Shown: piece after piece, positions 14,540 to 31,554 of the stretch | Position numbering within the stretch: position 1 is the first letter of the stretch | Layout: every line of letters begins with the position of its first letter | NCBI RefSeq assembly: GCF_003945235.1 | Contig: NZ_RSDW01000001.1 | Span: forward strand, 5,370,001-5,402,000 | Reading direction: 5' to 3' | Origin: Edaphobacter aggregans | GTDB lineage: Bacteria > Acidobacteriota > Terriglobia > Terriglobales > Acidobacteriaceae | Length of the DNA stretch: 32,000 bases | Made by a program: the position numbers and the translations under genes | Notes under the pieces: model-generated | What the model saw: only the letters and a program-made list of their open reading frames with translations | What the model was told of the DNA's origin: nothing | Databases searched by the model: none

Positions 14540-14843
14540 GGTGAGCGAATGATACAGATGCCCCAGACAAACAACCACAGCGCAGAACAGGAGAGCGGCA
14601 CCTTCGACGCGGCAATTGCCGGACGACCGAACGAGTACCACTAGGTTGGAGTCAGAGTAGACAGGCCGCCTCAATGTCAGACGCGCCATGGGTATAACGC
14701 TCAATTTGGTGGAGACGACTGGGAGCCACACCATTTCCTCCGCACGCTTACAAAAGGGAGGGGTCTTCGCGGATAGGGCATCACTTCCGTGTAGAACCGA
14801 CACCGCCCGATTCAGATATCGGGCGTTTTCTTTGGAGGGAGCG

Positions 14844-16382
14844 ATGTTTTTATGTCAGCCTTTACTTGATGTGCTTGCCGGGCGCGGCATTGAGGACATC
14901 GACGCTTTCATTAAGGTGCCGTCATGGAATGACCTTCCCGATCCATTCTCAATTCCGTCGATGGAAAAAGCCACTACCCGCGTCCTTTGCGCTATCCGGA
15001 GACGCGAACGCATCATCATCTTTGGTGACTACGATTGCGATGGAGTCCTGGGAGCCCACATCTTACGCAGCGCGCTAAGCGCTCTGGGAGCGCCGGCCAG
15101 AGTATCTCTGCCTCATCGGGATGAGGGCTACGGGCTGAGTTCTTCAGCAGTCCATCACTTCTCGCGCAGCGGAACGGACTTGCTTATCACTGTCGATAAC
15201 GGCATTAATGCGCGGGCGGCCGTGCGGTTGGCCCAACGCCTCGGGATCGGCGTCGTGGTGATCGATCACCACCGCATCCAGGAGCAGGCAGAGACCACCG
15301 CAGTCTGGTCCGATGGATTCTGCGGAGCGGGCCTGGCCGCGATGTTTGCCTGGGCTCTTGCATTGCGGGCAAAGTGGACCGATACGAAGATTGAGTACCT
15401 ACTATCCGGGTGCAGTCAATATGCAGCAATCGCTTCAATCGCCGATTGCGTACCACTGCTCGATGGCACACGAACTCTGGCCAGGCTGGGTCTCGCCGAA
15501 CTCGCCCGATCGCGCCACAAGGGGCTGCAAGAGTTACTCAAGACCTCTTGCACCGATCCATCCCAACCGGATTCGCGCGACGTGGCATTCGGTGTTGCTC
15601 CGCGGATCAATGCCGCGGGCAGAATGGCCCATCCGGCTGAGGCCCTTGCCGTGTTCGAGGCAGCGATGAACGAAGAGGCCGCACAACGGAGCGTCGAAAG
15701 GCTCAACCAGTTGAACCTGGAGCGCCGGCGTACCGTGAAAGTACATTTTGAAGAGCTTGTCGAGTCGCTCGGAACAAACATTCCAGCTGGCCTGGTAGCT
15801 TATCGCGAGGCCAGCCCGAAAGGGATCGCGGGCCTCCTCGCAAGCAAGTGCGTTGAGAGATACTCGGTTCCCAGCATCGTGCTCGTGCCATCGACCATTC
15901 CCGGTCAAGTCGTTGGATCAGGAAGAAGCGTTCCCGGCGTCGATCTCGTCGAAACTCTGCGGCCGCTTGGGAAACTGTTTCTTCGTTTTGGAGGACATAC
16001 TCAAGCTGTCGGTTTAACTATGGCTGTCGCCCGCATCGAGGAATTCCGGGAGAAGTTCGCTCGGTCAGTGGAACCTCTGGCGAGACGAGATAGTCAGAAA
16101 CCTGATGGCGAAGCTGAACTCAATCTGTCGTTCATGGGGCGCCATTTCGATGAGCAACTGCTTCTGCTCGAGCCGTTTGGAGAAGGGAATCGGCCTCCAA
16201 CATTCTCCATCTGCATGGCCGAAGTCCTGCGTGTCAGAAACAGATGGGTACGGATAAGGCAGGGTAGAAGCAGCCTCGAAGCACTCTGTTGGGATGTTCC
16301 GGTTCGAGAACAGATGAAGGGAGATTTCCTGGTTGAGTTTTACGGCAAAACCCGGATTTTGCGCGGTTTCACCCCTCGATAA
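14844..16382 (+). CDS. recJ: Single-stranded-DNA-specific exonuclease RecJ (DHH/DHHA1 family)
   Basis: The DHH motifs appear in order: IIFGDYDCDG, HRDEGYGL, LITVDNG, VVVIDHH, then the DHHA1 motif FGGHTQAVG and the C-terminal LLEPFGEGNRPP plus an OB-like tail. I chose the ATG at 14844 because GGAGGGA precedes it; the track ORF begins at 14688. Confidence 0.88.
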   Translation: MFLCQPLLDVLAGRGIEDIDAFIKVPSWNDLPDPFSIPSMEKATTRVLCAIRRRERIIIFGDYDCDGVLGAHILRSALSALGAPARVSLPHRDEGYGLSSSAVHHFSRSGTDLLITVDNGINARAAVRLAQRLGIGVVVIDHHRIQEQAETTAVWSDGFCGAGLAAMFAWALALRAKWTDTKIEYLLSGCSQYAAIASIADCVPLLDGTRTLARLGLAELARSRHKGLQELLKTSCTDPSQPDSRDVAFGVAPRINAAGRMAHPAEALAVFEAAMNEEAAQRSVERLNQLNLERRRTVKVHFEELVESLGTNIPAGLVAYREASPKGIAGLLASKCVERYSVPSIVLVPSTIPGQVVGSGRSVPGVDLVETLRPLGKLFLRFGGHTQAVGLTMAVARIEEFREKFARSVEPLARRDSQKPDGEAELNLSFMGRHFDEQLLLLEPFGEGNRPPTFSICMAEVLRVRNRWVRIRQGRSSLEALCWDVPVREQMKGDFLVEFYGKTRILRGFTPR

Positions 16383-17469: not shown

Positions 17470-20127
17470 ATGAGGGCCCGGATCGCAGTACCTCTCCTGA
17501 CTGCTGGTGCGATTCTGGCAATTTCGCTGAGCTACCATGCTTATCGCGAACGACCGCGACCCGATGATCCTGATTGGCTTTTACAGCGCGCCGATGAACA
17601 GGCGTGGCTAAACCAGTGGATTGACGCGGCTCCTGTCTATCACAGGGCGGAACTTCTCTTTCAGCAGCGGAATGAACCGGCCAGAGCGCTCTATGCGCAA
17701 GTCAGCCAGATGATGGCTACGAGCGAGACGTCCAGCTTTGCGCCGCAGATTGCGTCGCTGAGCGATGATCTCCAACTGCCCGCGGCCCGTGATCCGGAAA
17801 CCCGACTGAGAATTCTTATCATTCGGGGAATGCTCGAGACCAATTACGATGCAGGTCTGGCAACGAAGACCTGGACCGAGGTTGGCGAACTGGCGCGGAA
17901 ACAGAACCACTTCATGCTGGCGTCGAGGGCGATGGGAGAGGAAGGGATCGCAGCCTTTCTTCTTGGCGACGTTGACGGAGCCCAGGCGAAGGTCATGAAG
18001 GCATACCTCGTAGCCAAATACCTGGGCGATCCGGCTGCTAGAGTCAGGTACGCCAGCGTCTACGGCGCCGGGTTGGTCGCGCTCAAGAAATACGATCGCG
18101 CTCTCAAGCCACTTGATGAAGCCATCCGGGTCGCCAACACGACGCCAGGGGTAGCGTATCCAAGCATTGCCACCGCCTCGAAGATTGAGGCACTGGGCGG
18201 CTTGGGCCGTTATCAGGAAGCCCTCATGCTGGCAAATGATGCGATGGCACGGGTCACGGCCCGGCATCTGAACATGCATATCTCCGAGCTCCTCCGCATC
18301 CGTGCCGGCATCTATGAGCGGACCGAGCAGGCGAAGCTTGCTACCGACGACTACCAGGCAGCAATCGATATAGGTAAGAAGGTCTCCGATTGGCGTGGTC
18401 TTTTACAGACCGGCGGCTCGCTGGCCGCGCTCTATGAGAAGCAAGGCAGGCTCGAAGACGCTCTTCGTACCATCGACGATGCAATCGAGGCCAACAAGCA
18501 AATTCCCGATGAACTCTACTTTCTGCCGAGAAACCTCTCGATTAAAGCGCGAATCCTGGCGCGCATGGGAAAGACGGGGGAATCAAACACCCTGTACCAG
18601 AAGAGCGCGGATCTCATCGATTCTTTATTGGCGCACGCTCCCACTGCCAATGTGGAACGCGAGCTGATCACGTCTTTGCAGCAGGTCTATGCCGGCTACT
18701 TCGATTCACTTTGCACACAGAATAAGCTCGCCGAGGCGTTCCGCATCATCGAGAATGCTCGAGGTCGCTTCGAGGCTGAATCCCTTGAACACGTCGAGGC
18801 AGCACCCCCTCGTCCGGCAAGCGAGATCGACCAAAAATTAGTTCGTTTGAATCTCGCTCTCCTGAACACCGACGATCCTGCCAGGCGCGCCATCATTGTC
18901 GATCAAATCGGAGACACGGAAGGACGGTTGCCCTCTGAGTCTTTGGAGGGTAGGACGGCTGTCGATCCGGTGTCTCTGGCGCAGTTACAAGCGGACCTTG
19001 GCCCGAAGCAGATTCTCGTCGAATATGTTCTCGACGATCCTCGGTCCTACGCCCTGGCTATCACTCGTACAGCAGTCAATCGATACTTACTACCGCCGAA
19101 GCAGACGATCGAGCAAGAGGCCAGCGACTACCGATCGAGTGTCATGCAACGAAAGCCTGACGCGGCCACGGGGCAGAGACTGTTTCAACAGTTGCTTGGA
19201 AACATCCCCGAATACAAACGCAACGATGAGGTCATTCTGGTGCCGGATGGCGAGCTACATTTGTTGCCCTTCAGCGCACTAAATGATGGACCACACTATG
19301 CGATCGAATCACATACCCTGGCGGTCAGTCCTTCGGGAACGGTGTTTCACCTTCTGAAAGAGCGGGAACGCGCGCTCGATGCCAAATCTCGTCCGTACGT
19401 GGGTGTGGCGGCCTGGACGCAGGTGAAGCCATCAACCCTGGAACGTATCCTGCGCGGGGTGAATGGTCCAAAGGAGAGCGAATTCGTGCCGCTACCGGAG
19501 AGCAGGGAAGAGGTAGAAACTGCCGGAGCCGATCTGCCTAAGCCAAGCACCATCCTGCTCGGCGCTGATGCAACCGAGACACGGTTCAAGGACTTGCCAC
19601 TTGATCAATATCAAGTGCTGCATCTGGCACTTCACGGGTATGTCGATCCCACCTATCCGGATCGATCTGCATTGGTGTTCGCGCCCGAGAAGAATGGACA
19701 GAACGATGGTTTGCTGCAAGTGCGTGAGATCAGGCGAATGCGGCTCAATGCCAGCCTGGTTACGCTCTCGGCCTGCGATACCGGCGTTGGCCCCGCGGGT
19801 GCGGCAGGCATCAACAACCTCGTGACGGCATTTATCGACGGGGGCGCTCGCAGCGTCGTGTCAACCTTGTGGGAACTCGAAGATCATTCCACAACCCGGT
19901 TGATGACGAACTTCTATGCCAACCTGAAAACTGAGAGCAAAGCGCAGGCGCTCCGCGATGCGCAGCTCGAACTGCTCAGGGCAGGCTTCGGTCCATACTA
20001 CTGGGCCAGCTTCGAACTGGTCGGCGATCCCGACAACCTGGTCTTTGCGGGATCGAACCCTCCTTCCTCCTCACACGTTGCGCAGGGGCAAGTCATGCTT
20101 CAACAAACCGGTAGGCGGCCATTATGA
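17470..20127 (+). CDS. TPR-repeat CHAT-domain (caspase-like) protease with an N-terminal hydrophobic anchor or signal
   Basis: 885 aa. The N-terminus is MRARIAVPLLTAGAILAISLSYHA, followed by a long helical-repeat region and a C-terminal CHAT domain. The His is in VLHLALHGYV (codon 19633..19635) and the Cys in LVTLSACDTGVG (codon 19774..19776). The protein ends with YYWASFELVGDP, typical of CHAT. Confidence 0.9.
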   Translation: MRARIAVPLLTAGAILAISLSYHAYRERPRPDDPDWLLQRADEQAWLNQWIDAAPVYHRAELLFQQRNEPARALYAQVSQMMATSETSSFAPQIASLSDDLQLPAARDPETRLRILIIRGMLETNYDAGLATKTWTEVGELARKQNHFMLASRAMGEEGIAAFLLGDVDGAQAKVMKAYLVAKYLGDPAARVRYASVYGAGLVALKKYDRALKPLDEAIRVANTTPGVAYPSIATASKIEALGGLGRYQEALMLANDAMARVTARHLNMHISELLRIRAGIYERTEQAKLATDDYQAAIDIGKKVSDWRGLLQTGGSLAALYEKQGRLEDALRTIDDAIEANKQIPDELYFLPRNLSIKARILARMGKTGESNTLYQKSADLIDSLLAHAPTANVERELITSLQQVYAGYFDSLCTQNKLAEAFRIIENARGRFEAESLEHVEAAPPRPASEIDQKLVRLNLALLNTDDPARRAIIVDQIGDTEGRLPSESLEGRTAVDPVSLAQLQADLGPKQILVEYVLDDPRSYALAITRTAVNRYLLPPKQTIEQEASDYRSSVMQRKPDAATGQRLFQQLLGNIPEYKRNDEVILVPDGELHLLPFSALNDGPHYAIESHTLAVSPSGTVFHLLKERERALDAKSRPYVGVAAWTQVKPSTLERILRGVNGPKESEFVPLPESREEVETAGADLPKPSTILLGADATETRFKDLPLDQYQVLHLALHGYVDPTYPDRSALVFAPEKNGQNDGLLQVREIRRMRLNASLVTLSACDTGVGPAGAAGINNLVTAFIDGGARSVVSTLWELEDHSTTRLMTNFYANLKTESKAQALRDAQLELLRAGFGPYYWASFELVGDPDNLVFAGSNPPSSSHVAQGQVMLQQTGRRPL

Positions 20128-21392
20128 CGAACACGCTGGATCTCAAAGCTGAGCAGAGAGATGCAATTCTCAACCGCACACTGAAGGTCCTGGACCAACG
20201 GTTCTATCAACCGGAAAAGCTAGGCAATGGATGGAAGGACGCGATCGCGCGCAATCGACCGGCGATTATTGGCGCGTCAACAACGGCTGCTTTCGAAGAA
20301 GCCATCACGCGATTGCTCGAGGAATTAAAGACCTCACACGTCGGATTCTTTCACGGATCGGCAAGGCGAGCCTCAAGTAGAGCTGCTCTTAGCGCTACCT
20401 ACCTCGCGGACGACACTGATGAAGGTCGTCGCTGGATATTCCAGGATGTACACCCGGGAGGTGCAGCGTCGCTGGCTGCAATCGAGCCGGGCGACATTCT
20501 GTTACGTGTCGGAGCGGAGGAGATCATTCCTCCAACGCACCCCACTTTCCCAATGGGGGAAACGACAGAACTCACCGTCCTGACCGCCGACGGCAAAGAG
20601 CGTACCAGGAGCGTCACGGTCGCTCGGCCCAAAGGCAAGAAACTGCACTACGTCGAACCAAAGCTTGTTGTCGGCAATCGCCTGCAAGACGGCATTGGCT
20701 ACCTGAAGGTGGCCATGTTCCCAGGAATGGTGGGCGTAGAAGTTGCCAATGAGATATCGAGCCAGGTGGAGCAGTTGGGCAATGTCGAACGCCTGATTAT
20801 CGATCTTCGCGGGAACACAGGTGGAGGGATCGGAGCATTGCGCGTGATGAGTCTATTGACTCCCAGGCGGATACCAGTCGGCTTCGCGCTCGACAGAAAG
20901 TCTGCGCAACGAAACATTGCCGACGCAAAGAACAGCTTCCCGCGCTTTGACAGGATTCCAGCCTCGAAGAAGGGGCTTTGGCTCCTCGCGCTGCGCTATG
21001 CACCCATGCTGGTGAAGAAGTCTCCCATCGTCCTTGAGACCGAAGGGCTGGGAGCCAAGCCTTTCCATGGAAGAATCGTTCTCCTGGTGGACCGGCACAC
21101 GGCCAGCGCTGCTGAAATGATTGTTGCCTTCGCTCGGGAAAACTCGCTCGCCACGATCGTCGGGGAAAAGACGGCGGGTCGGCTTCTTTCCGCCACTTCC
21201 GCAAAGGTCGGGCATGGCTACCGCTTAGCCTTTCCTACGGGGGCGTACTACACCTGGAAAGGGTCAGTTCTCGAAGGCACTCCGATCGAGCCGGACCAAA
21301 GCGTTGCTTTCGATTGGCGTGAAGCACGACGTGGCAACGACCTGCAACTGAAACATTCCATTGAACTCCTCGAGAAGGTACTGACTCGATAA
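20124..21392 (+). CDS. PDZ-containing S41 family peptidase (C-terminal processing peptidase-like)
   Basis: 422 aa. The ATG overlaps the CHAT stop (ATGA at 20124..20127). It has a PDZ-like segment GGAASLAAIEPGDILLRVGAEEI and the S41 core motifs LIIDLRGNTGGG and LLVDRHTASAAEMIVAF (Ser codon 21105..21107). No signal peptide is evident. Confidence 0.88.
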   Translation: MTNTLDLKAEQRDAILNRTLKVLDQRFYQPEKLGNGWKDAIARNRPAIIGASTTAAFEEAITRLLEELKTSHVGFFHGSARRASSRAALSATYLADDTDEGRRWIFQDVHPGGAASLAAIEPGDILLRVGAEEIIPPTHPTFPMGETTELTVLTADGKERTRSVTVARPKGKKLHYVEPKLVVGNRLQDGIGYLKVAMFPGMVGVEVANEISSQVEQLGNVERLIIDLRGNTGGGIGALRVMSLLTPRRIPVGFALDRKSAQRNIADAKNSFPRFDRIPASKKGLWLLALRYAPMLVKKSPIVLETEGLGAKPFHGRIVLLVDRHTASAAEMIVAFARENSLATIVGEKTAGRLLSATSAKVGHGYRLAFPTGAYYTWKGSVLEGTPIEPDQSVAFDWREARRGNDLQLKHSIELLEKVLTR

Positions 21393-21492: not shown

Positions 21493-21975
21493 ATGAGTAT
21501 GGCTACGATCGCTCGCAAAACCGTTGCGCAGTTTGTTCCGTCCTCGAGCATCGCCAAGGCTGCGCGAATCCAGCCAGGAAGAAGCCTAGGACTCAAGCGC
21601 ATGGAGCTCCCCACCTTGCTCAAGGTGATTACCTCGGGTCTGCGCTGGTCTGCGGTGGAAAGCTTTCTGCAGGAATCGGGCTTTACGCAGCTGCAACTCG
21701 CACAGTACCTCGGTATTCCTGTTCGGACTCTGGCCAGGCGCAAAGAAGCAGGTGGACTGGACGAAAATGAGTCTGAACGCCTGCTCCGACTGTCAGAAAT
21801 TTACGATGCAGCCCTTGATCTTTTCGCTGGGGATAAAGCTGATGCGCGTGAATGGCTGCTTTCACCTGTGCGCGGTCTGAATAATTCCCGACCAATTGAC
21901 TATGCTCGTACTGACTACGGGGCACGAGAAGTTCGGAATCTGATTGGCCGGCTCGAGCACGGGGTTTTCTCTTGA
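21493..21975 (+). CDS. Xre-family / DUF2384 antitoxin (MbcA/ParS-like)
   Basis: 160 aa with an HTH (FTQLQLAQYLGIPVRTLARRKEAG) and a C-terminal DUF2384 pattern (SERLLRLSEIYDAALDLFAGDKADAREWLLSPVRGLNNSRPIDYARTDYGAREVRNLIGRLEHGVF). It overlaps the RES gene by 4 nt. Confidence 0.88.
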   Translation: MSMATIARKTVAQFVPSSSIAKAARIQPGRSLGLKRMELPTLLKVITSGLRWSAVESFLQESGFTQLQLAQYLGIPVRTLARRKEAGGLDENESERLLRLSEIYDAALDLFAGDKADAREWLLSPVRGLNNSRPIDYARTDYGAREVRNLIGRLEHGVFS

Positions 21976-22430
21976 TCGAAGCCTGGCGCATTGACCGAAA
22001 AATCTATCGGGCGACAGCGTTTACCGGCGAAGGTGCAAGAGTCTATGGAGGTCGATGGAATAGCCAGGGTGTTTCCGTGGTCTATACCGCTGAGCACCGA
22101 TCACTGGCAATGCTTGAGATCCTTGTCCATCTAAGAAGGCCCAGGGACTATGAACTCTATTCGGTCAAATTCGACGAATCTCTGGTCCAGGAACTTGCAG
22201 CCCGCAACCTTCCTCGAAACTGGGACGTCGAACCTCCTACAGGTGACACTCAGGAAATAGGAGACAACTGGGTGATGGGCGCATCGTCCGCTGTCTTATC
22301 CGTTCCAAGTGCCGTTGTGCCGGAGGAACGAAATTACATCCTTAACCCACGGCATCCTGATTTCAAGCACATCAAGATCGACGGGCCGTTTCCTTGTTAT
22401 TTCGATCCGCGCCTGCTTGGAGAAAAATAG
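21972..22430 (+). CDS. RES-domain toxin (NAD+-targeting MbcT/ParT-like)
   Basis: 152 aa with a TTG start that overlaps the antitoxin stop (cTTGA at 21971..21975). The R/E/S landmarks are GARVYGGRWNSQG, SLAMLEILVH and AVLSVPSAVVPEERNYILNPRHPDF. Confidence 0.88.
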   Translation: MIEAWRIDRKIYRATAFTGEGARVYGGRWNSQGVSVVYTAEHRSLAMLEILVHLRRPRDYELYSVKFDESLVQELAARNLPRNWDVEPPTGDTQEIGDNWVMGASSAVLSVPSAVVPEERNYILNPRHPDFKHIKIDGPFPCYFDPRLLGEK

Positions 22431-24217: not shown

Positions 24218-24910
24218 TTATTCGATTTGAAGAGGATAGGTGTAAGGAGCGTCTTCGCCCTGGAGTTGAGTCGACAAGGTGTAATTACCTGGTGCCGCAC
24301 TTCTCAGATCGAGAGACACCGTGACCACGGTTCGCGGATCGGCACCCACCGCCGACCCGGTTGCGCAGGCTACGCGATTAAGCCCGTTCTTGGCGGGCGC
24401 AACCATGATGGAGTAAACGCCGGGTTGGCTCAGACGAGGCAGGACAAGTTCCAGCCTTACGAGCGCGGCGGGAAGATGGAGTGGAGGATTGCTCTTTGGC
24501 TCGCCACCGCGGTAGGTTCCATACTGCGAAAGGTCCAGGGTACGATGAACTTCGGCCGACTGCACCTGGACTACTGCCGGATGTCTACGGTTCCAGGCAT
24601 TGGCAAGAACGAACCCTACCAACAAACAGGCCAACCCCGTCGCCGCCACAGTCGCGTAGCGAAACCTCGGAGATGTTCCTGCCGGACGAGTTGCGCGGAA
24701 CTGAAGCAGCCGCCCCAGGCAGTAGTTGCAGGATGTGACATGATCGACACGCGGATCGGAGAGCGAGACGTCCATGGGACGTGCTGCATAGGATTTCAGA
24801 AAGGCATCGTCCACACACTCCGGGGTCTTATCTCCACTCGGCTGCCTGCGGGCATAGGATTCAACCTGTCTGAGGAACCATTCTTCAGAGTTCAATTTTT
24901 TCTTGATCAC
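24218..24910 (-). CDS. Anti-sigma factor (zf-HC2/ZAS N-terminal domain, one TM helix, extracytoplasmic C-terminal domain)
   Basis: It has an HxxxCxxC motif (DHVTSCNYCLGRLL) and a single TM helix (YATVAATGLACLLVGFVLANAW), and lies directly downstream of the sigma gene. The start is uncertain: GTG 24910, TTG 24895 or the track ATG 24964. These overlap the sigma stop by 26, 11 or 80 nt respectively. Confidence 0.75.
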   Translation of the reverse strand: MIKKKLNSEEWFLRQVESYARRQPSGDKTPECVDDAFLKSYAARPMDVSLSDPRVDHVTSCNYCLGRLLQFRATRPAGTSPRFRYATVAATGLACLLVGFVLANAWNRRHPAVVQVQSAEVHRTLDLSQYGTYRGGEPKSNPPLHLPAALVRLELVLPRLSQPGVYSIMVAPAKNGLNRVACATGSAVGADPRTVVTVSLDLRSAAPGNYTLSTQLQGEDAPYTYPLQIE

Positions 24911-25484
24911 TATCCTCTCGCTCTTCAGAGCTAGACCTATCAGAAGAGGGGACCAAAAGTCCACGAAGCTCCTTGTGATAGGCCCGCCGAACTGTGGCGT
25001 GACTGGATTCCAAAGCGTCCGCGATCTGGCGCCAGCTATGCCCCGCGAGACGCCAATAAGTAATCTTCCTCGCGCGTTCGCTCATCCGGCCCAGCATCTG
25101 CTCGATGTACGCCGTCTGCTCTGATTCAGATTGTGAGGAAAATGCAGCAGCCAGTATCTCGAGATCGAAGATGGATCCACAATATATCTCGCGATTGTTC
25201 CGGACGCGTTGTTTGGAGAGCCTTTTCAGAACACTCACGATTCTGTAAAAGAGCTGGGTGGTGGTTCGCTCGCCCTGGAAGCGTTCGTAATATCGTTCCG
25301 TATTCGAAACTGCTGCGTCCATCAGGTCGTACGCCGCGTGAATATCGTGCAGATAGCGAGTGGCGCAATAAAGAGCGTACGGCCAGGTTAAAACGCATAG
25401 TCGACGAAACAACTCGTCCATGGCCGGATTCGGGGAGCCCAGATACCAGTACTTACTGGAGGGGAGAGGCAGCCTTGAGTCCAT
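24885..25484 (-). CDS. ECF-type RNA polymerase sigma-70 family factor
   Basis: The region-4 HTH is MSERARKITYWRLAGHSWRQIADALESSHATVRRAYHKELRGL, and the region-2-like part is YALYCATRYLHDIHAAYDLMDAAV. The start is at ATG 25484 or 25421. The first ~70 codons of the track ORF look non-coding. Confidence 0.78.
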   Translation of the reverse strand: MDSRLPLPSSKYWYLGSPNPAMDELFRRLCVLTWPYALYCATRYLHDIHAAYDLMDAAVSNTERYYERFQGERTTTQLFYRIVSVLKRLSKQRVRNNREIYCGSIFDLEILAAAFSSQSESEQTAYIEQMLGRMSERARKITYWRLAGHSWRQIADALESSHATVRRAYHKELRGLLVPSSDRSSSEEREDSDQEKIEL

Positions 25485-25774
25485 TGAGAGCCCTCTGCGA
25501 CGGAATAAACAGCTCAGCAGGTCACAGCAATATGTCACTGGATTGTAACGCTGACTGAGACTTATCGAATCGCCGAACAATGAAATTATTCTTGGCGCAA
25601 ATGATCCAAACGCTATCGAGAAATGCCTTATATCAGTAAGGGACGAACAGGCGACGCCAGCGTCCCTGCCTTCCCCTCGAGCTTTCACTGGCATCACAAG
25701 AAATACGTAGAAAAATCTCTATACCCCTCTTCTTTTCTGCCTCGTTGTGTGTATATGGAAGACTGAGGTGCGGT

Positions 25775-26461
25775 ATGGCTACAAAGAATATGCCTCCCGG
25801 GAAACCCAGAAGGTATCTCTGGCCCGCGGAGGCGGTGAACATCGCGCAGAAGAAACGACATCCGGTTCGGCTATGTGAAGAACTGATGGCACTGACCGGT
25901 TACGACAAAGCTGCTTGCTGGCGATTCTTGAAGAAACATGGTGTGGAGCGACCCGGGTCCGGGTCCAGGCGAACGTTCGATCCGACTACCGTCGAATCGA
26001 TCATGGAATATGTATCGGAGCATGGTGTACGGGCTGCGTCCCAACGTTTCCACTGTGAAGCCAAGACGCTATACAACTTGATCCATCGCCGCGGCTACGC
26101 GCACTACGGCAAAGATATATTCAGTTTGCGCCAGATCTGCGCACATTTCTGTGTCCGATACAGCAAGGTTATAAGTTGGATCGAGCAGGGGCTGCTCAAG
26201 GCAAAGCGCGAGCAAACGCGCACGGGACGACCTATCTATTCGATAGAGTTTGAGGCTCTGCAGAAGTTCTGCAAGGAACACCGGAACCTTTTGATTACAC
26301 GTCGCTGGCCACCCCAGCGGATCCGGTTCCTGGAGGAGTACGTGTTTGCTCCGAAGCATGCGGAATTGCTGCGGACCCGCGAAAGCAAGCGTGAGAATAG
26401 TGCGTTTGATCGTGGTGAATACTTAGACCCCGATGATGAAGACCTTCAGCGCAGGGCCTGA
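25775..26461 (+). CDS. Hypothetical DNA-binding protein with three HTH-like modules
   Basis: ATG 25775 follows GAGGTG. There are three helix-turn-helix-like segments: LCEELMALTGYDKAACWRFLKKHGV, GVRAASQRFHCEAKTLYNLIHRRG and FSLRQICAHFCVRYSKVISWIEQGLLKA (MerR/excisionase-like). The tail is acidic. Confidence 0.68.
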   Translation: MATKNMPPGKPRRYLWPAEAVNIAQKKRHPVRLCEELMALTGYDKAACWRFLKKHGVERPGSGSRRTFDPTTVESIMEYVSEHGVRAASQRFHCEAKTLYNLIHRRGYAHYGKDIFSLRQICAHFCVRYSKVISWIEQGLLKAKREQTRTGRPIYSIEFEALQKFCKEHRNLLITRRWPPQRIRFLEEYVFAPKHAELLRTRESKRENSAFDRGEYLDPDDEDLQRRA

Positions 26462-26976
26462 TCGCACTTCTCACGGACGCTGCATCCAGAGCAGCGGCCG
26501 CGTTGATTGTGATTTCGTTTCGCCTGCTTTGCCAGGCGGGCCGCTTGAACCGCCGCGATCATGTTTATAAGCCATTTGCGATTGGAGTCTGTGAACTCCA
26601 CTCGTCGAACCTGCTGACCGGCATAAATAACCAGGCCATAAGGAACCCGTTCCCCGAGCTGTTCTTCAACGAGTGCACAATAGGCCAGGTTCTGAATCAT
26701 GTGATTGGGATAGACCTCGTCTCGGGCTGGCGGCCGCTTGGAGTTCTTCAATTCGACCGGCACAATCCCTTCCGCGGTTCGGATCAGGCAGTCTGGCTTT
26801 CCGGAGATGCCCAGAGTCAGAGACCGCAGATCATGAGCTGCGAATGGCTGCCCGACAAGATCCTGATAGAACACCTCGCCAGCCGGTATTCCCGTCCTCC
26901 TGCGAGATCGGGCACTCAACCAAAAGAACAGGATAGCCAGGACCATCGCGGTAACAGCCATCAGCAGCACTGTCAT
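26446..26976 (-). CDS. Cas4/Dna2-like PD-(D/E)XK nuclease, core and C-terminal Cys cluster, with an N-terminal TM helix
   Basis: The N-terminus MTVLLMAVTAMVLAILFFWLSARSRRR forms the TM helix. The nuclease motifs are GISGKPDCLI (D) and VPVELKNSK (E-x-K), with QNLAYCALVEE. The C-terminal cysteines are RCSGCSVREKC. The ATG at 26976 overlaps the upstream stop as ATGA. Confidence 0.8.
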   Translation of the reverse strand: MTVLLMAVTAMVLAILFFWLSARSRRRTGIPAGEVFYQDLVGQPFAAHDLRSLTLGISGKPDCLIRTAEGIVPVELKNSKRPPARDEVYPNHMIQNLAYCALVEEQLGERVPYGLVIYAGQQVRRVEFTDSNRKWLINMIAAVQAARLAKQAKRNHNQRGRCSGCSVREKCDQALR

Positions 26977-27224
26977 TTCGCCCACCCCAGCCAGCAGAAG
27001 ACAATGAGAAAAATCGCCAACATGAGGGCGGCGAGACCTGCCCAGCGGTAGCCGTCACCACGAGCAAGTGATCTACCCTGCTCGACATGCCATGCGGTTG
27101 CCTCGGCTTGCAGTTTGCGAGCCATAGGCGACACCTCAGCACCATCGAGGTACTTCAAATGCCATGCTTTCGAGCAGTAGACGAACTCTGCCAATTCGGT
27201 GGCGCGAATGAATTTTTGCTTCAT
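26973..27224 (-). CDS. Small protein carrying the Cas4-like N-terminal Cys helix plus a C-terminal TM helix
   Basis: MKQKFIRATELAEFVYCSKAWHLKYLDG...ATAWHVEQG matches the Cas4/RecB-family N-terminal pattern (x-[ST]-[DE]-L-x2-[FY]-x2-C-x-[RK]-x2-[WYF]-L). It ends in the TM helix WAGLAALMLAIFLIVFCWLGW. GAGG lies 7 nt upstream of ATG 27224. Confidence 0.65.
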   Translation of the reverse strand: MKQKFIRATELAEFVYCSKAWHLKYLDGAEVSPMARKLQAEATAWHVEQGRSLARGDGYRWAGLAALMLAIFLIVFCWLGWAK

Positions 27225-27546
27225 CAAGGGCCTCGTGCTGGAGCAATGAAACCAGCTTTTCGTGGTTGGAGCAAACGAGCGAAATGTGATTGATGAAGAC
27301 GGATGTTTCGACGTGACACTGAGGAGAACTCACGCAACCGAAATGGGGCCGGCACAGCCAAGTTCGTCAAAAGAGAAAAAGCGTGTACCTCACTTTTGTA
27401 CTGAAGCTTGGTAGAGCTGAACGCTCGCAAAGACAGCTTCGGAGCTTTGTATGGGCGATTGGCTATGAGCCGAGAGCGACTTTCGTATCTTCAAGGCGAT
27501 CCTGGTCGCCTGAGCCATCCTTGTGTTTTGCGGTGTCTAAGTTCTT

Positions 27547-28764: not shown

Positions 28765-29156
28765 CGCCGGCACCACACAACCGAGATCTTCGCAGGTAGG
28801 CGGTTTGCCCGTAGCCGCAGCATCACTGATTTAAGTAGCTTTGCATAAGACATGTAGTCGTTAGTGGAGAAAAAGTGTGCACTTCGCTTTTGTCACGGAC
28901 ATGCCACGAGATTGATAACTTTCCTCCAGGCGTCAAAATCGATTCGATGTTCGAGCATAGCGGCCGCGGTGCTTATCGTGCCAACTGTTTTCAAATGCGC
29001 CATTTGTTACCCTTGTCGCTGAGCCAGAGTCCAGACAGTGTCTGGACAATTCGAGAGTCCCATCTGGTCCACCATGAACATCTGTCTGTCTCGGTGCCGA
29101 TTTCTCTGATAATGAAGTGTGAGATATTGACCAGAACATGAGAAGTGGATTCGATC

Positions 29157-30248
29157 ATGACGGATAGGCTGGAGACTCTCCAAAACTACAGCGCTGTTCG
29201 CACAGAGATTGTCGCATTGCTCAATGCGGCTCGAACCGCCTCGGTTCGAAGCGTCAATGCTCTGATGACCGCTACATATTGGGAGATAGGGCGTCGAATC
29301 GTCGAGTTTGAGCAGCAGGGTCAGGAAAGAGCTGAGTATGGAGAAGCCCTCATCAAACAGCTTGCGGACGATTTGACGCGCCAGTTTGGCCGAGGTTTTG
29401 GAGCCGTTAACCTGAGCCAGATGAGACGCTTTTACCTGGCATGGCCGCCTCGGCAGATTTTTCAGACACCGTCTGAAAAATCTTTGGCACTACCTGAACT
29501 GGCTGCCAAGTTCCCATTGCCGTGGTCCGCCTATGTCCGTCTGCTCTCTGTGAAGACTCCAGATGCCAGAGCTTTCTATGAAACTGAGGCTTTACGTTCC
29601 GGCTGGTCGATTCGGCAACTCGACCGTCAGATTAGCAGTCAGTTCTACGAGCGGATCGCACTCTCGAAGAATAAGGCCGCCATGCTGGAAGGCGCGCGGC
29701 GCGCCGAACCGGGCGATGCCATTACTGCAGAGGAAACCGTTAAAGATCCATTCGTATTGGAGTTCCTCGGTCTAAGAGACGAATACTCGGAGTCTGATCT
29801 CGAAGCGGCGCTCATTCACAATCTCACTGATTTTCTGCTGGAGTTGGGTGACGACTTCGCTTTTCTTGGCCGACAAAAGAGACTTCGTCTCGATGACACC
29901 TGGTTCCGTATCGATCTCCTCTTCTTTCATCGTCGCCTGCGGTGTTTGGTCGTCATCGACCTCAAGGTGGGCAAGTTCAGCTACGCCGATGCCGGGCAGA
30001 TGCACCTATATCTCAATTACGCCCGCGAACATTGGATGAAGGCGGGAGAGAATCCTCCGGTTGGACTCATCCTCTGCGCAGAAAAGGGAGCGGCGGAAGC
30101 CCACTATGCTCTCGATAACCTGCCGAACAAGGTGCTTGCTGCCGAGTATCAAACCGTGCTCCCGGACGAGAAGCTCATTGCGGATGAACTGGAAAGATCA
30201 CGCTCACACCTTGAAGAACGGCGTCTAAGGTTGAATCAGGAACATTGA
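29157..30248 (+). CDS. yhcG: YhcG-family PDDEXK nuclease (DUF1016)
   Basis: The N-terminal DUF1016 helical domain is VNALMTATYWEIGRRIVEFEQQGQERAEYGEALIKQLADDL. The C-terminal nuclease core is FAFLGRQKRLRLDDTWFRIDLLFFHRRLRCLVVIDLKVGKF...GQMHLYLNY. Confidence 0.9.
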   Translation: MTDRLETLQNYSAVRTEIVALLNAARTASVRSVNALMTATYWEIGRRIVEFEQQGQERAEYGEALIKQLADDLTRQFGRGFGAVNLSQMRRFYLAWPPRQIFQTPSEKSLALPELAAKFPLPWSAYVRLLSVKTPDARAFYETEALRSGWSIRQLDRQISSQFYERIALSKNKAAMLEGARRAEPGDAITAEETVKDPFVLEFLGLRDEYSESDLEAALIHNLTDFLLELGDDFAFLGRQKRLRLDDTWFRIDLLFFHRRLRCLVVIDLKVGKFSYADAGQMHLYLNYAREHWMKAGENPPVGLILCAEKGAAEAHYALDNLPNKVLAAEYQTVLPDEKLIADELERSRSHLEERRLRLNQEH

Positions 30249-30519: not shown

Positions 30520-31554
30520 ATGCCCGCCACCTCCACAATCCGGACCCAGATCGAAGTAGCGCTTGCCCATAAGATTCCGTCCGCACTGACTCCGGCACCA
30601 AAGATGATCCGGCCGATGGCAGAAACTGGCATTAAATCCCTGGACAATCTCCTGCAAGGCGGCTTACCCATTGGGGCCGTAAGCGAGTTGGTCGGGCCAG
30701 AGTGTTCAGGTCGGACAGACATCGCTCTTTCGTTTGTGGCGCACCTGACTCAGGCATCCAAGGTCTGCGCCTGGATCGACGCTTCGAATAACTTTGACCC
30801 AGTGTCCGCCGCTGCGGCGGGAGTAGATCTTGCGCGGCTCTTATGGGTCCGCTGCGGTGCAGTGCGGGAGACAGTGAAACCACCGACACGCAACTTCGTT
30901 TTACCAGACAAGTACCTCGTTCCACGTCCCGCAAAGCAAGGATTGCACGGTGGAGGATTTGGTTCGCATCCTCGTGGCGAGGCAAAGGGGTTGTCCGGTG
31001 CCGTGAGTGGTCTGCTCAATCCACAATCCTTCGCGCCGCGCTGTGCGGAGCCGCAACTCAGGCTGAGAGAAGAAAATCCGAGCTTTATCGCAAGCGATGA
31101 ACCAGCAGTCGTCGCTTCTCGACGTTATTCTCCTACCTCTAAACCATGGGCACGCATTGAACAGGCATTGGGAACTGCAGACCTGCTTTTACAGGGCGGC
31201 GGCTTTAGTGCAGTCGTGCTGGATATGGCGAGTCTCGCCCCGGAGTTTGTCTCACGCATCCAGCTCTCGACCTGGTTTCGCTATCGAGCGGCAGCGGAGC
31301 GAACGCAATCCAGCGTTCTTCTCCTCACGCAGTATGCGTGTGCAAAGAGTAGCGCCGAATTACTTCTTCACCTCCAGCCTGCAGAAGCTATCGGCGATGA
31401 AATCACTGTATTTACAGGGATACAAGCTCATATTGAGGTAACGCGGCGACGTTTCGCGCCGAACACAAGCAATGTTGTTCCATTGCGTAAGCCACCGCAG
31501 AACGTCAGCGGAGCTACATGGCAGTGTCGAACCGCATGGTCAGGTGCGCGATGA
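30520..31554 (+). CDS. imuA: ImuA-like RecA-fold protein of the imuA-imuB-dnaE2 mutagenesis cassette
   Basis: TGIKSLDNLLQGGLPIGAVSELVGPECSGRTDIALSFVAHLTQASKVCAWIDASNNFDPVSAAAAGVDLARLLWVRC is the typical ImuA N-terminal core. The stop overlaps the imuB ATG (ATGA at 31551..31554). The protein is longer than typical ImuA because of a central low-complexity insert. Confidence 0.78.
   Translation: MPATSTIRTQIEVALAHKIPSALTPAPKMIRPMAETGIKSLDNLLQGGLPIGAVSELVGPECSGRTDIALSFVAHLTQASKVCAWIDASNNFDPVSAAAAGVDLARLLWVRCGAVRETVKPPTRNFVLPDKYLVPRPAKQGLHGGGFGSHPRGEAKGLSGAVSGLLNPQSFAPRCAEPQLRLREENPSFIASDEPAVVASRRYSPTSKPWARIEQALGTADLLLQGGGFSAVVLDMASLAPEFVSRIQLSTWFRYRAAAERTQSSVLLLTQYACAKSSAELLLHLQPAEAIGDEITVFTGIQAHIEVTRRRFAPNTSNVVPLRKPPQNVSGATWQCRTAWSGAR

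Follow-up and report, generated by a model that had tools for sequence, protein, structure and literature searches.

Can a Cas4-like nuclease be encoded, and kept by selection, in two pieces that share one active site? The question is raised by two short open reading frames (ORFs) on the minus strand of Edaphobacter aggregans contig NZ_RSDW01000001.1 (assembly GCF_003945235.1), located in a stretch of 32,000 nucleotides (positions 5,370,001 to 5,402,000 of the forward strand) henceforth referred to as the window. Positions given below are those of the window unless another locus is named. The two frames, of 83 aa (the small ORF) and 176 aa (the core ORF), overlap as ATGA (26976..26973), with the stop codon of the first lying over the start codon of the second. 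Public annotation lists the core as "CRISPR-associated protein Cas4" and the small ORF as "hypothetical protein". A first-pass annotation, made from the sequence alone, had read the two as halves of one membrane-anchored Cas4-like nuclease, separated by gene fission or by a frameshift; its ORF coordinates, the overlap, the GAGG ribosome-binding site and all of its quoted peptide strings are present in the sequence. The analysis presented here indicates, with a probability of about 0.8, that the products are two subunits of a single membrane-anchored nuclease of the Cas4 family (RecB-type PD-(D/E)XK, 4Fe-4S), split by fission and unrelated to CRISPR.

The two reading frames as probable parts of one Cas4 domain

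The core ORF was identified as a Cas4-type nuclease by profile searches. Its product passes the Pfam Cas_Cas4 model (PF01930) with 38.2 bits (cut-off 22.7), covering only profile positions 47-158 of 160, and also passes PDDEXK_1 (PF12705) with 32.3 bits (cut-off 22). PADLOC Cas4 models match the protein from about position 50-70 onward, and a profile of the core family, which comprises 214 relatives of about 176 aa at the close level, matches the Cas4 part of PDB entry 7mi4 over residues 73-193. Since the Pfam, PADLOC and PDB matches all start late in the Cas4 profiles, the core is devoid of the N-terminal 50-70 residues of a Cas4 domain. The NCBIfam cas4 equivalog model TIGR00372 gave 54.3 bits, below its cut-off of 65, and was aligned at positions 62-178 of 180 only. 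The D / E-x-K nuclease motifs and the three remaining cluster cysteines, assigned to this frame in the first pass, are indeed present: among 46 diverse family members, D62, E75, K77, Q95, C162, C165 and C171 show no variation and Y99 is kept in at least 90%; C100 is likewise conserved to at least 90%. The C-terminal cysteine triad also aligns with the triads of the Cas4 structures 8d3l, 4ic1 and 4r5q.

The N-terminal part of the domain was traced to the small ORF by way of its family. This family contains 57 proteins, nearly all about 83 aa in length (longer entries are upstream start-codon calls), in which the motif LIRATELAEFVYCSKAW-LKY, the WH--QG motif and the transmembrane (TM) helix are almost invariant. 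C17 is kept in at least 90% of the family and is invariant in a joint alignment with natural fused homologues, while H46 is invariant in the family and nearly invariant in the joint alignment. Comparison of the family with six fused proteins by hhalign aligned residues 2-70 to fused residues 8-77 with a probability of 97% (E 4.7e-11). In the fused proteins, PDDEXK_1 spans from profile position 2 to its end with the TM hairpin treated as an insertion, and the fused-family profile matches the type I-C Cas4 8d3l in two stretches, the N-terminal one corresponding to Cas4 residues 6-60. The cysteine of the Y-x-Y-C-x3-W motif and the histidine of the G-x2-H motif in the fused family align with those of 8d3l, and the same was observed for Pcal_0546 (4r5q). 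The alignment to fused N-termini, and of C17 with the Cas4 cysteine, bears out the earlier proposal that the small ORF carries the Cas4/RecB N-terminal helix and the first cluster cysteine, and extends it, as the conserved H46 lies in the small ORF as well.

In the Cas4 protein SSO0001, His62, Asp99 and Glu113 are Mn ligands (PMC12501428; also PMC13621843). H46 would be the counterpart of the metal-binding His62 and is a probable ligand of the catalytic metal. The active site would then be composite, with a catalytic metal ligand as well as the first Fe-S cysteine coming from the small ORF. The four-cysteine set of one N-terminal cysteine plus C-x2-C-x5-C is found only in both ORFs together (C17 with C162, C165 and C171), and the RecB-type motif set is present in the pair with the histidine (H46) coming from the small ORF and the D, E-x-K and Q-x3-Y elements from the core.

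Predicted structure and membrane topology

The two products were joined end to end and modelled as one chain with AlphaFold2, using an alignment of 19 natural fused homologues. The joined pair was predicted with confidence as a single domain (mean predicted local distance difference test score, pLDDT, 90.7; predicted template modelling score, pTM, 0.86). In the model, a helix at residues 33-77, a turn at 78-82 and a second helix at 83-111 are followed by the alpha/beta core, and the chain break (83/84) is located at the hairpin turn. The best Foldseek matches in the PDB were the Cas4 structures 7mi4 and 8d3l, the latter with a target TM-score of 0.68 over 271 columns, followed by Dna2 (E 4.5e-06 to 1.7e-05) and MGME1 (4e-04 and weaker). 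The fold predicted for the joined pair is that of Cas4, including its N-terminal helical module.

A single strongly hydrophobic 19-residue stretch was found in each product, at residues 62-80 of the small ORF (Kyte-Doolittle mean 2.51) and 2-20 of the core (2.56), in agreement with the TM helices that had been annotated at the end of the former and at the start of the latter. Lysine plus arginine counts in the small-ORF family average 3 before the TM helix and about 1 after it; in the core family they average about 0 before and 3.7-4 after. By the positive-inside rule, this distribution suggests an N-in/C-out orientation for the small protein and N-out/C-in for the core, with both soluble parts cytoplasmic, which matches the topology predicted in the first pass.

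In the mechanism proposed, the 83-aa subunit would be tail-anchored, with cytoplasmic helices providing the first Fe-S cysteine (C17) and the probable metal-ligand histidine (H46), and the 176-aa subunit would be held by a signal anchor and would supply the remaining active site (D62, E75-x-K77 and Q95-x3-Y99) and the other three cysteines. The two TM helices would pair as a hairpin with an external turn of 2-3 residues, bringing the cytoplasmic parts together into one Cas4 fold with one Fe-S cluster and one active site; either chain alone would be expected to be inactive. Translation of the two genes would be coupled by the ATGA overlap. Fe-S binding and nuclease activity are predicted for the assembled enzyme. 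Coordinates of the individual features are provided in Table 1. A promoter and terminator scan of the locus gave nothing above shuffled sequence, and an Rfam scan of the window gave no match.

Table 1 Features of the gene pair in the window and examples of a related gene cluster in three other loci.
Feature	Position	Strand	Basis or remark
GAGG Shine-Dalgarno-like motif	27231..27234	-	6 nt 5' of the small-ORF ATG; read from sequence
N-terminal subunit gene, 83 aa: soluble helical module, then C-terminal tail-anchor TM helix	26973..27224	-	ORF, family, hhalign, dN/dS
Cys17 codon, predicted first 4Fe-4S ligand, motif EFVYCSKAW	27174..27176	-	Conservation and alignment to Cas4
His46 codon, predicted catalytic metal-binding His, motif AWHVEQG	27087..27089	-	Conservation and alignment to Cas4
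TM helix 1, small-ORF residues 62-82, predicted N-in/C-out	26979..27041	-	Hydropathy, K+R counts; within model helix 33-77
ATGA overlap, in predicted external turn of TM hairpin	26973..26976	-	Sequence; same in 17/17 intact Acidobacteriaceae loci; model
C-terminal subunit gene, 176 aa: N-terminal signal-anchor TM helix, then Cas4/PD-(D/E)XK core	26446..26976	-	Pfam, PDB profile matches, relatives
TM helix 2, core residues 2-22, predicted N-out/C-in	26911..26973	-	Hydropathy, positive-inside counts; within model helix 83-111
RSRRR directly after TM helix 2	26896..26910	-	Sequence
Nuclease motifs II and III	26746..26793	-	D62 in GKPD 26791..26793; E75-x-K77 in VELK 26746..26754
Q95-x3-Y99 motif (QNLAY), then conserved Cys100	26680..26694	-	Family conservation
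C162-x2-C165-x5-C171, three predicted C-terminal Fe-S ligands	26464..26493	-	Invariant in every alignment made
Chloroflexota-like cluster, examples	L028 3283-5510; L029 3368-5516; L042 1267-4528

Conservation of the split in Acidobacteriaceae

A single Cas4-like gene broken by one indel, either as a pseudogene or through a sequencing or assembly artefact, would also present itself as two frames. The frames do differ by one nucleotide at the junction, fused homologues exist elsewhere, and related loci (L019, L020, L021 and L011) are truly decayed. The pair was compared across loci from 18 GTDB species, which include Edaphobacter, Terracidiphilus, Tunturiibacter, Sulfotelmatobacter and other Acidobacteriaceae/Terriglobales, as well as at three more loci, and the small ORF was always located 5' of the core. 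The ATGA overlap was observed in 17/17 intact Acidobacteriaceae loci despite protein identities to the window of 55-90% for the small ORF and 64-88% for the core, and the core ATG is kept in every locus. No true fusion was found among the best 120 of 214 core relatives, nor among the 57 small-ORF relatives; the few core entries of greater length result from start codons called further upstream in the overlapping frame. dN/dS (the ratio of nonsynonymous to synonymous substitution rates) relative to the window lies at about 0.08-0.20 (small ORF) and 0.08-0.16 (core), and both genes are under purifying selection. Distant clades, moreover, have other junctions (-7 to +123 nt) or inserted genes. 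An artefact is very improbable given these results. The conserved overlap, the lack of fusions among the relatives listed and the purifying selection likewise refute the frameshift that the first-pass annotation had offered as one of its two origins; homologues in the intact loci are consistently two genes with the same overlap, and not one uninterrupted ORF.

A programmed -1 ribosomal frameshift at the overlap, resulting in a single fused polypeptide, would be in keeping with the tight overlap and with the core frame being the -1 frame of the small ORF. However, no slippery heptamer is present at the overlap, the nucleotides before ATGA differ among the loci (GCGAA, GCAAG, GCCCG, GCGCG and TCTCG), and the halves are separated in other clades by gaps of +1 to +123 nt or by a whole gene. 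Together with the retained core ATG, this makes frameshifting highly unlikely.

Several genomes contain a frameshifted or shortened core (L019 6001-6520; L020 6001-6528, on a Tunturiibacter plasmid; L021; L011), and in P0091 (Acidisarcina polymorpha) the C-terminal cysteine triad is lost and the small ORF is kept. Most of the GTDB loci (L004-L021) have the gene 0-15 kb from a contig end, which suggests a nearby repeat or a region that is hard to assemble.

Split, fused and separated forms

An exhaustive HMMER search with the core profile returned 1,600 representative clusters, of which 623 had E<=1e-10. Most of these clusters are 165-190 aa in length with an N-terminal TM helix, like the window core, and the split arrangement, which is kept in hundreds of bacteria and archaea, is the commonest form of a large family and no local oddity. 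A membrane-tethered, two-chain Cas4-like enzyme without CRISPR context had been expected in the first pass to be unusual; this stands for the architecture and fails for its occurrence.

A minority of longer proteins are natural fusions, in which a Cys-bearing N-helix is followed by 2, 4 or 8 TM helices and then the core (P0226, P0244 (Methanofollis formosanus), P0270, P0274, P0321, P0333 (Thermoplasmatota), P0314, P0318, P0250 and P0304). Fused forms with a named source are archaeal. The exact layout of the window (N-helix with Cys, TM, TM, core) is found fused in P0244 and P0226; with the hhalign result and the model break in the turn, these proteins support the suggestion that a Cas4-like protein underwent fission in the loop of a TM hairpin. 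The pair would have originated by natural gene fission within, or would represent an unfused state of, a family with a TM hairpin between N module and core. Among the fused relatives, four TM helices lie between N module and core in P0314, P0318 and P0330-P0337, and eight in P0250 and P0304. P0338 has a single hydrophobic stretch; at about 24 residues it is too short to form a hairpin, and it may be re-entrant or an assembly artefact.

Further split forms were found in L022, where a 95-aa piece abuts a 179-aa core, in L028 and L029 (Anaerolineales and another bacterium), with pieces of 78 and 80 aa, and in a Methanotrichaceae archaeon, where an 89-aa piece has a 25-nt overlap with a 187-aa core. 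The Methanotrichaceae core is 51% identical to the fused archaeal protein P0226, compared to 32% for the joined pair of the window. Being nearer to P0226 than the window pair is, it suggests that fission or fusion probably took place more than once.

Relatives were also collected by a metagenome scan, which used one peptide pattern and a narrower alignment and whose sample is biased to the Chloroflexota-like clade. More than 545 relatives were obtained. An adjacent N-piece gene is present in 35/68 loci with enough upstream DNA, with junctions ranging from a 7-nt overlap to a 123-nt gap and a 4-nt gap being the commonest. At 8 more loci the halves are parted by an unrelated gene, encoding a YkuD L,D-transpeptidase or a 263-aa protein, and the N piece is located 0.4-1 kb upstream; at 11 further loci on truncated contigs the same inserted gene adjoins the core. 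The persistence of both halves despite the inserted gene argues for function in trans. A search of 2.9 million viral contigs gave one weak match only, and the family is cellular, not viral.

Genomic context

The source annotations, one of which reads "CRISPR-associated exonuclease Cas4", and the Pfam and PADLOC Cas4 matches would make the core a genuine Cas4 of a CRISPR adaptation module. No CRISPR array was detected, as the 32-kb window contains no tandem repeats, and cas1, cas2 and other cas genes are missing both from the gene tables of the loci that were sampled and from the scanned ORFs of the window, so that the absence of CRISPR context noted in the first pass was confirmed. The TIGR00372 score lies under its cut-off, and known adaptation Cas4 proteins are neither membrane-anchored nor split. 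The chance of a CRISPR-associated function is accordingly judged to be minimal. The pair is located outside CRISPR-cas loci and recognisable mobile elements, as solo-Cas4 genes are defined to be (Hudaiberdiev et al. 2017), and the split family is a clade of solo-Cas4.

In the Acidobacteriaceae, the companions of the pair are a 238-aa helix-turn-helix (HTH)-like protein, a sigma-region-4/CATASP-like gene, an anti-sigma-like membrane protein, a TPR-CHAT protease and an S41 peptidase. The gene for the 238-aa protein (25745-26461, +) is convergent with the core, with 3' ends overlapping by 16 nt, and was found beside the pair in about 15/20 Acidobacterial loci at 49-92% identity. The first-pass annotation had described it as a convergent three-HTH protein; the convergent gene is present, and its HTH description depends on Pfam matches below threshold. 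A second neighbour, described as a HEAT protein, was confirmed as such by Pfam. The TPR-CHAT gene (17470-20127, +) overlaps the S41 peptidase gene (20124-21392, +) by 4 nt, and the sigma-region-4/CATASP-like and anti-sigma-like membrane protein genes are located nearby (24885-25697, - and 24218-24964, -). This set accompanies the pair in most Acidobacteriaceae loci in varying order, and is reminiscent of defence islands under sigma/anti-sigma control (PMC11506125). An Xre-type antitoxin and RES-domain toxin pair (21493-21975 and 21972-22430, +), situated between the S41 gene and a 573-aa gene without a Pfam match, is also present in L019 and absent from more distant syntenic loci. A YhcG/DUF1016 PD-(D/E)XK nuclease (29145-30248, +) matches PDC-S02, a candidate defence family of PADLOC (E 1e-136), and L004-L006 and L020 also have a homologue upstream of the pair. 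The window also contains a 344-aa protein with a partial RecA-domain match (30520-31554, +) and a RecJ-like DHH/DHHA1 protein (14688-16382, +); these RecA-like and RecJ-like genes, together with the nuclease pair, make the region rich in DNA-metabolism genes.

The same two chains could serve in defence, as a membrane-tethered effector against incoming phage or plasmid DNA, under the control of the adjacent sigma/anti-sigma-like pair and of the TPR-CHAT/S41 genes. Such a role is consistent with the companions that travel with the pair in Acidobacteriaceae, with the Xre/RES and YhcG (PDC-S02) genes of the window and with the precedent of a sigma/anti-sigma-controlled island, whereas the neighbours outside Acidobacteriaceae are housekeeping-like (RNase H, SSB-DUF3467-Translin-like, MoaA, ribosomal proteins and tRNA methyltransferases). 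None of the PADLOC system models fits, almost no members of the family occur in viral contigs, and vertical inheritance is reported to dominate the evolution of solo-Cas4 genes (PMC5704561). Defence under sigma/anti-sigma control is a possibility that has no support outside Acidobacteriaceae and is considered unlikely overall.

A conserved gene cluster was identified in the Chloroflexota-like clade, with the order SSB, DUF3467, Translin-like, N piece, optional insert (the YkuD L,D-transpeptidase or 263-aa protein) and Cas4 core (examples in Table 1). The Translin-like gene is directly upstream in 32 metagenome loci and scores barely at the Pfam cut-off (26.2 vs 25.9 bits). The fused Methanofollis gene overlaps an upstream RNase H gene. 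The RNase H and SSB/DUF3467/Translin-like neighbours point to nucleic-acid metabolism and to no mobile element. Aldehyde:ferredoxin oxidoreductase genes were observed directly upstream of the L022 pair (L022 2-1846) and less than 2 kb from the fused Methanofollis gene (L025 8392-10194); both placements may be coincidence. For the membrane-anchored pair, a solo-Cas4 function of housekeeping or repair type is suggested, in which the ends of DNA or ssDNA (single-stranded DNA) would be processed on the cytoplasmic side of the membrane.

Discussion

The reading of the pair as two subunits of one nuclease is carried by the gene structure, by its conservation and by the homology that relates each half to the corresponding part of the fused homologues and of Cas4, and the confident single-domain model of the joined pair is consistent with it. 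Several observations weigh against it. The small ORF alone has no match in Pfam, NCBIfam or PADLOC, and a PDB profile search with it gave a chance TPR match only (E 1.1), so the earlier expectation that profile searches would relate it to Cas4 N-termini fails for the ORF by itself and holds for the family profile through the fused homologues; the link between the small ORF and Cas4 is transitive. In silico deletion of the TM hairpin lifts the Cas_Cas4 score only from 38.2 to 39.9 bits, with the Cys helix uncaptured, and a single-sequence PDB search of the hairpin-deleted construct gave chance HipA matches only. The AlphaFold2 model is a single chain built on a fused-protein alignment, and assembly of separate chains is beyond its scope. 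No N piece was found within the locus at about 10 metagenome loci and L027, with at least 1.7 kb of upstream DNA, and the core may sometimes work without an N piece or with an unlinked copy. The decayed copies (L011, L019, L020, L021 and P0091) indicate that the gene is dispensable in some genomes, and the Acidobacterial neighbourhood gives no clear functional clue.

Some of these observations would fit a small and unrelated membrane protein, for instance a regulator, a chaperone or an immunity factor, encoded beside an N-terminally truncated 176-aa nuclease that works alone without a complete Fe-S site. The small ORF would then have no direct library match, as observed, some loci would have a core and no detectable N piece nearby, as observed, and a solo-Cas4 mutant without the Fe-S cluster is reported to be still active (cited in PMC13621843). 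This explanation is nevertheless judged improbable given the profile-profile homology of the small ORF to fused N-termini, the alignment of its conserved cysteine and histidine with those of Cas4, the joined model as one confident Cas4-like domain and the co-occurrence of both genes across phyla and domains of life. Two subunits of one Cas4-family enzyme thus remain the preferred interpretation.

The pair shares with solo-Cas4 (PF01930/COG1468; PMC5704561, PMC12501428) the RecB D / E-x-K / Q-x3-Y motifs, the one-plus-three cysteines, the Cas4 fold (here in a model), the absence of CRISPR context and a largely cellular inheritance. A 2017 Cas4 survey described a monophyletic solo-Cas4 group in many Chloroflexi (PMC5704561). 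Known solo-Cas4 proteins are described as single soluble polypeptides, with the Solo-Cas4 of M. mazei forming a soluble oligomer of about 318 kDa (PMC12501428), whereas two genes with one predicted TM helix each are found here, a TM hairpin is placed between N module and core, and most members are cut into two genes inside this hairpin. CRISPR Cas4 proteins (8d3l of type I-C, 7mi4 of G. sulfurreducens Cas4/Cas1, 4ic1 of SSO0001 and 4r5q of Pcal_0546) gave the best profile and fold matches, and the pair can be aligned with them in the Cys helix and in the G-x2-H, D, E-x-K and C-x2-C-x5-C elements. The pair differs from them in its lack of cas1, cas2 and an array, in falling under the TIGR00372 cut-off, in its predicted membrane anchoring and in consisting of two chains. 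The nuclease domains of Dna2, AddB and MGME1 (the same Fe-S or the related PD-(D/E)XK superfamily) have a related fold and PDDEXK_1 matches, but are unsplit domains of large soluble helicase-nucleases or of a mitochondrial enzyme and have no TM hairpin. Split Doa10 (PMC3464245) offers an analogy only: its break likewise falls in a loop between TM helices and its fragments are expected to re-associate in the membrane, whereas here the split would divide a soluble catalytic domain and its metal sites, with the TM hairpin acting as a clamp.

Searches of the published literature gave no description of a membrane-anchored or split Cas4. In the text of PMC5704561, the words "transmembrane", "truncated" and "split" are absent and "membrane" is used once, and the text of PMC12501428 contains no reference to transmembrane segments or splitting. 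Recognising the pair corrects the annotation of hundreds of proteins that are listed as CRISPR-associated Cas4 without CRISPR context and are apparently part-enzymes. The SSB/DUF3467/Translin-like linkage in Chloroflexota and the sigma/anti-sigma/CHAT neighbourhood in Acidobacteriaceae provide leads on function.

More tentatively, and at slightly less than even odds, the family may represent a large, ancient and undescribed prokaryotic class in which a Cas4-type Fe-S domain is membrane-clamped by a TM hairpin, mostly as two chains sharing one site and one cluster. Such enzymes would work together with proteins that bind ssDNA/RNA (the SSB, DUF3467 and Translin-like operon of Chloroflexota), and their substrates would be nucleic acids at the inner membrane face, such as DNA ends that are incoming or membrane-associated. 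The pair defines a widespread solo-Cas4 clade with a distinct cell-biological property, predicted membrane tethering, and would be a natural split enzyme in which the catalytic site and the Fe-S cluster are rebuilt from two polypeptides held by a TM hairpin. For specialists, the surprise would be a widespread Cas4-type enzyme that is embedded in the membrane and naturally split through its active site.

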